DNA from: a virus
DNA: 64,000 nt
Virus record (IMG/VR): IMGVR_UViG_3300009509_000015
Coordinates: 11,361-75,360 of that record
Reading direction: 5' to 3' (one strand)
The position numbers and the translations under genes were made by a program. A model generated the notes under the pieces. That model was not told the origin of the DNA, searched no databases, and was given only the letters and a program-made list of their open reading frames with translations. Numbering within the stretch: the stretch's first letter is position 1; each line of letters begins with the position of its first letter. Shown in pieces: positions 50,118 to 50,617 of the stretch.

Positions 50118-50199
50118 ACCTTCTCCTTCTATACTACGTCGTACTTCTTAAGTACTATGAGTAGTACATTAGTACTTATAAGTTCTAATATACTATTTT

Positions 50200-50582
50200 G
50201 TTATAGTTGATCACTTGGATACACTCCCCCCATCTAGCATGAGTACACATTTAGATAAATGCCACGAGTACTCACGAAAGATGGGGGGAAGATGATCTAC
50301 ATGTTTGATCTTACAGTGCGGTAAGATAGGGAGGTTAAAGGTCTAGGAAGACCACATGATCCCTCTAACACGTCGCATCTACTAAGTGCTATGAACCGAA
50401 GTTCAACTGTCCAGGCGATCCGTTACCAGTTGGTATTAGCACTCATCCCCTTGCCCGTAGGCAGATCGGCGGTGACCCATCAAGGTTTCTGGAAGTCCGT
50501 GTATGTCTGTCGGTGACGGAGTGGGTGTTACCCACCAAATGATTTTTTATCTATCACAACTTACCGACGTTAGTTGTGAATT
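50200..50582 (-). ncRNA. large structured non-coding RNA, class unassigned
   Basis: ORF-free, GC-enriched, own promoter, many stems including C(UUCG)G and C(UACG)G tetraloops on the - strand; ends approximate. Confidence 0.65.
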
Positions 50583-50588
50583 TTTTAC

Positions 50589-50617
50589 ATTATACCACAT
50601 GTGTTTATTTACGTCAA
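50589..50617 (-). promoter_or_regulatory. sigma70 promoter
   Basis: TTGACG-N17-TATAAT with TG extension. Confidence 0.8.

Follow-up and report, generated by a model that had tools for sequence, protein, structure and literature searches.

In a 64-kb window (64,000 nucleotides (nt), positions 11,361 to 75,360) of the 75-kb IMG/VR virus record IMGVR_UViG_3300009509_000015, the − strand behind the large terminase subunit gene terL appears to encode a structured RNA, which we describe here with its promoter, its neighbouring genes and its relatives. The gene terL (50609–52477, −; a gpA-type ATPase) is the upstream neighbour of the RNA and the anchor by which related loci were found; over the 490 nt that follow it (50118–50608) there is no − strand open reading frame (ORF) of even 40 amino acids, which confirms at a stricter cut-off the absence of ORFs of 60 amino acids or more given in a preliminary description of this DNA. 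The promoter named there, TTGACG-N17-TATAAT, is confirmed as a sigma-70-type promoter at 50589–50617 (−) with a score of 11/12 and an extended −10 element (TG before the −10 hexamer), and its −35 hexamer overlaps the final codons and the stop codon of terL (50611–50609). Downstream of the RNA lie a conserved small ORF of 76 amino acids (49887–50117, −), preceded by a Shine–Dalgarno (SD) sequence GAAGGAG at 50129–50123, then two more small ORFs, a DEDD (DnaQ/RNase T-like) 3′–5′ exonuclease gene (48563–49417, −; matches to Pfam RNase_T and PHROG 192 and weak NCBIfam matches to DnaQ and RNase T), a terminator-like hairpin with a 14-bp stem and a T run (48509–48540, −) and the portal gene. As set out below, the phage very probably has here the gene of a structured, ~370-nt RNA, the central 110 nt of which form a divergent, enlarged core of the type known in Rfam as EGFOA (RF02955).

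Relatives of the locus come from metagenomes. Similar DNA was not found among isolated phages, no isolate's terL reaches 26% identity to that of the window, and a single-sequence terL scan of IMG/VR found no relatives. Metagenomes hold abundant terL relatives at 45–74% identity, the closest being P0002 (74% identical) and P0003–P0014 (59–64%), and an alignment of 30 such relatives (A1) retrieved 27 IMG/VR loci, 22 metagenome loci and three contigs from metagenome-assembled genomes (MAGs). Most of the other loci have a 400–800-nt ORF-free gap behind terL, with the common word CUGGUAA-N6-9-CCUGGGCAG. The RNA copies all lie directly behind an orthologous terL (47–60% identity), with the same order of parts and a like promoter. 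A scan of IMG/VR with the core pattern gave at least 118 loci; in most, the upstream parts are missing and the match seems due to chance or to coding sequence, and the true matches are terL-linked contigs already in the set.

The conserved element runs on the − strand from an estimated transcription start at ~50582 to ~50217, a length of ~370 nt. The interval originally assigned to the RNA, 50130–50617, does contain the promoter and the fold, whereas its last ~90 nt (50216–50130) are an AT-rich, GTAC-rich spacer that lies outside the conserved fold and holds no terminator. Base composition marks out the RNA region (G+C content 0.44–0.50, compared with 0.31–0.39 in the flanks), and the minimum free energy is −156.9 kcal/mol, with a z score of −6.14 on the − strand versus −3.88 on the + strand. 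All of the stems listed previously can be read in place on the − strand, and most recur in the minimum-free-energy fold. About 17 cells of the pair table compiled for the window and its relative L003 are G–U pairs that would become A–C mismatches on the opposite strand, fixing the − strand as the transcribed one; together with the better − strand z score, they bear out the orientation proposed at the outset. Words GTACT/AGTAC reach their densest clustering in the window within and around the spacer (7 in 150 nt, 50100–50249), and similar words stand at the equivalent place in L003 and L005; the cluster could be a protein-binding or processing site.

Read 5′ to 3′ along the − strand, the RNA opens with a domain of three hairpins. 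HP1 (50554–50579; UCACAACU/AGUUGUGA) carries in its loop GUCGGU (50568–50563) one partner of a long-range pair, the other partner of which is the loop ACCGAC (50514–50509) of HP3 (50496–50520; UCCGU/ACGGA), and between them lies HP2 (50521–50535; GUGGGU/ACCCAC), which is kept in L003 by compensatory changes. The EGFOA-type core follows at 50384–50493 and, as delineated by the Rfam alignment, by a model of the relatives (R1, below) and by covariation, comprises PK1, P1, P2, P4, PK2 and P5. It begins with the 5′ strand of pseudoknot PK1, UCCAG (50493–50489), which pairs with CUGGA (50414–50410) in the P4 loop. The P1 stem CCUU/AGGG (50485–50482 with 50451–50448) holds in its loop CACCGCCGAUCUG and a hairpin UGCC-UACG-GGCA, and the closing stem P2, GAGUGCUA/UAGCACUU (50444–50437 with 50391–50384), has four compensatory pairs relative to L003. 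Within P2 stand the P4 stem AACUG/CAGUU (50431–50427 with 50409–50405), whose loop contains GUAA, the 3′ strand of PK2 (CGGAUCG, 50422–50416) and the 3′ strand of PK1, and the P5 hairpin GAAC-UUCG-GUUC (50404–50393). The core is followed by a 3′ four-way junction (50299–50373), in which ACGUGU/ACAUGU encloses AGGGA/UCCCU (holding GGUC/GACC) and the hairpin AUCUUAC/GUAAGAU, and by a 65-nt terminal C-rich/G-rich hairpin (50225–50289; UCCCCCCAUCU/AGAUGGGGGGA with inner GUGAGUAC/GUACUCAU). Directly behind this hairpin a conserved tail, GUGUAUCC (50217–50224), was read directly from the sequences and has a family consensus of roughly AGUSUAU. The terminal hairpin has 21 pairs, six of them compensatory relative to L003, and an equivalent hairpin with the AGUSUAU tail is present in all related loci read. 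The position of the four-way junction is filled by other inserts elsewhere, and this domain is common only to the window and L003 (an exact-pattern scan of IMG/VR returned the L003 contig only).

Over the full length of the RNA, covariation was assessed in a two-sequence alignment with one relative, L003, whose terL is 60% identical and whose post-terL region is alignable with that of the window over ~340 nt (nhmmer E 1e-19). In this comparison 98.8% of the 83 proposed pairs are paired and 21 have changed on both sides, against 38–48% paired and one to three both-side changes in slid controls, in which partners were shifted by 1–3 columns. RNAalifold on the same two sequences gave 93 pairs, 24 of which are compensatory; its core pairings UUCC/GGGG and CCA/UGG were dropped, the wider family supporting P1, P4 and PK1. 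Across 18 distinct sequences, P4 is 100% paired and all five of its pairs are compensatory. PK1 was inferred from the relatives: 15 of 17 loci have a single exact complement of the loop strand upstream, 62–126 nt before the core (shuffle control, mean 4.35 and maximum 11 loci), in the covarying variants UCCAG/CUGGA, CCCAG/CUGGG and CCCAA/UUGGG. This third long-range pair, the main pseudoknot, had escaped the preliminary description, which had proposed the other two, and both of those prove to be real. The first, CGAUCU/GGAUCG, is the window form of PK2, the pairing of the P1 loop with the P4 loop, which remains complementary in 17 loci though its sequence differs in almost every lineage; in a test based on the model-fitted alignment, cognate PK2 duplexes average −5.64 kcal/mol versus −3.24 kcal/mol for non-cognate ones, and none of 5,000 partner permutations was as stable. 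In the window, CACCGCC-GAUCUG pairs with CGGAUC, and the sequence of this segment departs from the EGFOA consensus CCGUCCUG. The second, the 5′ loop–loop pair GUCGGU/ACCGAC, has counterparts at 12 of 18 related loci, where it takes one of four sequences (GUCAG/CUGAC, GUCGG/CCGAC, GUUCGG/CCGAAC or GUUAGC/GCUAAC). Fold, promoter and covariation, the last both along the whole molecule in L003 and in P4, PK1 and PK2 across loci, thus support the earlier proposal of a large multi-junction non-coding phage RNA with its own promoter between terL and portal.

EGFOA is an orphan small RNA in Rfam, the motif reportedly going back to Weinberg et al. 2017, and its model has 108 positions and a gathering score of 37.7 bits. 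In an Rfam scan, half of the syntenic loci (7 of 14) exceed that score: L031 with 49.5 bits, L005 with 49.0, L016 with 42.9, L017 with 40.8, L021 with 38.5, L042 with 38.0 and L014 with 37.8. A model built from 15 relatives, from which the window and L003 were left out (R1), matches L003 with 21.9 bits (E 2.6e-4) and the independent locus L171 with 57 bits, and its best match on either strand of the 64-kb window is the homologous spot, 50390–50477 (−). A composite motif (a 5-bp P4, GUAA, C(C/U)UGG(G/A) and, upstream, a 5-nt complement) has the RNA as its single site in the window, compared with 0.0067 occurrences expected. Several features by which EGFOA is recognized are present in the window: P4 reads AACUG-GUAA-CGGAUCG-CCUGGA-CAGUU; the pseudoknot of (C/U)CCAG with CUGG(G/A) in the P4 loop takes the form UCCAG/CUGGA; a CCGUC-type segment is followed by bases that pair with the P4 loop; and homology in sequence and position connects the window to L003 (E 1e-19), L003 to R1 (E 2.6e-4) and all of them by synteny. 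Judged from these sequences, the window RNA is tied to EGFOA by homology through L003, by synteny, and by two pseudoknots and P4, all of which covary.

Several results weigh against strict membership of the family. The window copy aligns with the EGFOA model over its full length (50390–50490, −) with 15.2 bits (E 0.79 when 141 nt were searched), short of the 37.7-bit cut-off and so below the formal Rfam test; EGFOA is listed in the window neither at gathering nor at E ≤ 10 over 1.1 kb. R1 gives the window copy only 11.3 bits (E 0.13 to 0.71). The best whole-genome EGFOA match is a decoy inside the exonuclease ORF (49018–49113, −; 17.2 bits, E 0.035), which looks like a chance match and is a warning about sub-threshold EGFOA scores; as it outscores the window copy, model scores alone do not establish membership. 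Finally, P2 is present in the window and the P3 hairpin of the model is missing; an extra hairpin stands behind P4, as it also does in L008, L011, L015 and L042, which score 51–71 bits on R1.

Some of these points would also favour the possibility, raised in the preliminary description, of a new RNA class unrelated to EGFOA. No Rfam family reaches threshold on the window, the EGFOA alignment stays below its cut-off and ranks behind a match in a coding region, and the Rfam model with its 108 positions does not cover more than two-thirds of the RNA, namely the 5′ domain, the four-way junction and the terminal hairpin. A new class is opposed by the transitive homology through L003, the shared and covarying PK1, PK2, P4 and GUAA in a composite motif expected 0.0067 times, and the same-slot copies, with the same part order, in phages with orthologous terL whose cores pass the EGFOA threshold. 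Since RNAs of the same layout behind orthologous terL pass the EGFOA score, a new class is not supported: we regard it as largely refuted and most improbable, and the Rfam search suggested earlier, negative for the window itself, leads to a known family in the syntenic relatives. The window RNA is a divergent, enlarged EGFOA relative, not a new kind of RNA, and we hold this explanation, taken as a whole, to be likely.

Other families do not account for the RNA. Of ROOL, GOLLD, raiA, OLE, HEARO, tmRNA, RNase P, group I and II introns and phage pRNA, those that Rfam 15 contains have no match at gathering in the whole window and none at E ≤ 10 over 49800–50900, in agreement with the statement that tmRNA and RNase P signatures are lacking. 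R/S-like words prompted the idea of a group I intron, which was rejected: terL is complete and collinear with its homologues, the topology is unfit and there is no Rfam match. With EGFOA the window RNA shares its non-coding nature, a 5′ CCCAG-type strand, then a CCGUC-type segment that bears a hairpin, and a closing stem around a 5-bp helix whose loop opens with GUAA and ends with CCUGGG. It differs in its expanded P1, in having CCGCCGAUCUG in place of CCGUCCUG, in the lack of P3 and the extra hairpin behind P4, and in that its core sits in a promoter-to-hairpin RNA of ~370 nt, with the 5′ three-hairpin domain, the four-way junction and the terminal hairpin outside the Rfam model. It differs further in having a defined genomic slot, behind the terL of one phage clade. 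The EGFOA family has been described as a set of putative small RNAs from regions that are free of genes and unusually large (bioRxiv 10.64898/2026.07.01.735769). ROOL and GOLLD resemble the window RNA in being large, multi-domain, pseudoknotted and phage-borne, and often lie near tRNA genes; the window RNA is smaller, has a different core and matches neither in sequence or structure (E ≤ 10). Both ROOL and GOLLD have been reported to self-assemble.

A second, more divergent core type (GGUGGGUGA...GAGACUGGCA) occupies the same slot in L018 (5640–5850), L036 (4040–4250), L034 (2400–2560) and L172 (1560–1730). The strands of its pseudoknot are completely exchanged from locus to locus (CCAG/CUGG, CUGG/CCAG, UUGG/CCAA), and the Rfam EGFOA model and R1 detect none of these four cores.

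The promoter and the genes around the RNA define its likely transcript. The strict promoter pattern TTGACN-N14-TGNTATAAT occurs four times in the 64 kb versus 0.01 times expected; the other three sites (52743–52771, 57682–57710 and 60667–60695, +) all face the opposite way, and a further 11/12 promoter with TG stands ahead of the terS–terL block (53805–53777, −). Nearly all related loci have a promoter of the same type at the stop codon of terL, among them L020 and L046, which lack the RNA. No terminator-like site was found on the − strand directly behind the fold, and the hairpin at 48540–48509 is the first on that strand after the RNA promoter, so that transcription probably continues through the three small ORFs and the exonuclease gene. 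The RNA, these ORFs and the exonuclease gene therefore probably form one transcription unit with the exonuclease gene as its last, and the RNA would then come first among the products of a short operon that separates terL from portal. Contigs from RNA libraries (four runs, with 5–7% of the sampled words of a 4-kb stretch) are short and of low depth and fall on the exonuclease gene, the 76-amino-acid ORF and terL; none is on the RNA, and as contigs they are uninformative about expression either way.

Of 18 distinct loci with the RNA, 12 have a homologous exonuclease gene 3′ of it, and none of the seven RNA-less loci has one there; because the loci are mutually related, this association is suggestive but does not prove a link. 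The 76-amino-acid ORF has no match among Pfam, PHROG or NCBIfam families. A small protein of ~75–100 amino acids with the motif ELxPxKxYILxLP ... VKLLEF is encoded behind the RNA in most loci, including the window, L003, L016, L017, L018, L021 and L030, and the RNA-less L023 has a similar small reading frame directly behind terL. In L011 the stretch between terL and the RNA promoter holds a tRNA gene (5295–5366) that has a separate consensus promoter, a similar tRNA-like stretch stands there in L012 (~5180–5250), and tRNA-like ends were read from the sequence behind the small ORF in L034, L041 and L172. The window itself has sixteen tRNA genes in clusters (264–16832, +), which marks a phage with a large tRNA set.

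Some related loci offer possible clues to host and distribution. MAG bins that contain loci with terL and the RNA bear the labels Anaerolineales and Chloroflexia, and a third related contig, whose core is of the second type, was binned as Bathyarchaeota; all may be mis-binned phage contigs. In the Chloroflexia MAG contig L171 (CAWBGK010000016.1, 255,880 bp), terL, an EGFOA-type RNA and the exonuclease gene lie at ~196–204 kb, a locus that may be a prophage, and thus a host clue, or part of a mis-binned large phage contig. The stretch 48500–52500 of the window is present at 100% of sampled words in 16 runs from eight studies (15 DNA, one unclassified), the samples of which are labelled marine sediment, soil, mangrove or plain 'metagenome'. 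This spread is unusually wide for one phage genotype and could reflect doubly filed samples, a cosmopolitan host or a common contaminant.

How the RNA acts can be addressed by analogy and by its setting. We lean, tentatively, towards a stable RNA particle that acts in trans, on the grounds of its size, its three tertiary pairings, the tRNA genes found in the slot, the distance of the next SD sequence (~90 nt beyond the fold, at variable spacing) and the oligomerization of EGFOA RNAs. Two of these have been examined in vitro by cryo-electron microscopy, which showed a trimer with a hexamer class and a strand-swapped dimer (bioRxiv 10.64898/2026.07.01.735769). Cleavage near the long terminal hairpin may release the RNA described here, which may self-assemble as those two do. 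Two considerations argue against action in trans: the absence of a terminator behind the fold leaves the RNA with no defined 3′ end, and the promoter kept by the RNA-less L020 and L046 fits a leader embedded in an mRNA. The oligomerization data concern other, shorter members of the family in vitro.

Both of these considerations would equally be expected to hold if the fold were a cis-acting leader, that is, the 5′ untranslated part of the small-ORF/exonuclease mRNA. Such a leader would regulate that mRNA or shield it, for instance through a block to 5′ decay, a modification of RNA polymerase that allows read-through, or the sensing of a ligand. Transcription from the RNA promoter meets its first terminator-like site only at 48540–48509, past the next ORF, and the RNA is always co-oriented with the downstream genes and always directly behind the promoter. 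The SD sequence of the next ORF, however, lies ~90 nt past the last conserved helix of the window RNA and ~90 to 200 nt past it across loci, a distance and variability that make sequestration unlikely; three tertiary pairings in 370–800 nt exceed the needs of known leaders of such kind, and the downstream genes differ between loci. We consider a leader possible and somewhat less probable than the trans-acting particle.

More speculative is the idea that the EGFOA-type RNA and the DEDD exonuclease constitute one functional module, to which we assign a low probability. Within it, trimming or loading of the RNA might fall to the exonuclease, or the RNA might serve the enzyme as a guide or act as its inhibitor. 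Host or phage nucleic acids would then be the target of a self-assembling RNA particle that a host-type promoter supplies early; such a particle could be, for example, an anti-defence decoy or a head-assembly scaffold.

A role as a packaging or head-assembly cofactor, with the RNA oligomerizing and docking on portal or terminase after the model of phi29 pRNA, is very unlikely. The pRNA is phage-encoded, oligomerizes through loop–loop pairs and is linked to the packaging machinery, and the RNA described here does lie between terL and portal in most loci and belongs with EGFOA RNAs that form trimers with a hexamer class in vitro. Gene position, the sole parallel with pRNA at this locus and the sole support for the procapsid association raised earlier, is weak evidence. 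In L007, L013 and L170 portal flanks terL on the opposite side; the RNA has no similarity to Rfam families other than EGFOA, pRNA included, and the window phage has an ordinary terS/terL pair. That the hairpin-dense region adjoining the terminase genes is instead an element acting at the DNA level (a pac or cos site, a replication origin or folded single-stranded DNA) can practically be dismissed, given numerous G–U pairs valid on one strand only, a consensus promoter reading into it, covarying pseudoknots and relatives that match an RNA family model.

For the EGFOA family, these findings mean that the 108-nt motif is here the mere core of a larger RNA (370 to ~800 nt) with three covarying tertiary pairings, and that an RNA of this type is phage-borne; in one large clade of uncultured phages its address is fixed, directly behind terL, and its promoter is a consensus one of host type. 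Divergent members such as the window copy escape the Rfam model as it stands, which is a reason to rebuild that model, and the natural boundaries of the RNA give testable constructs. The DEDD exonuclease whose gene often trails the RNA is a candidate protein partner; if the two do form a module, it would be the first function for this orphan family.
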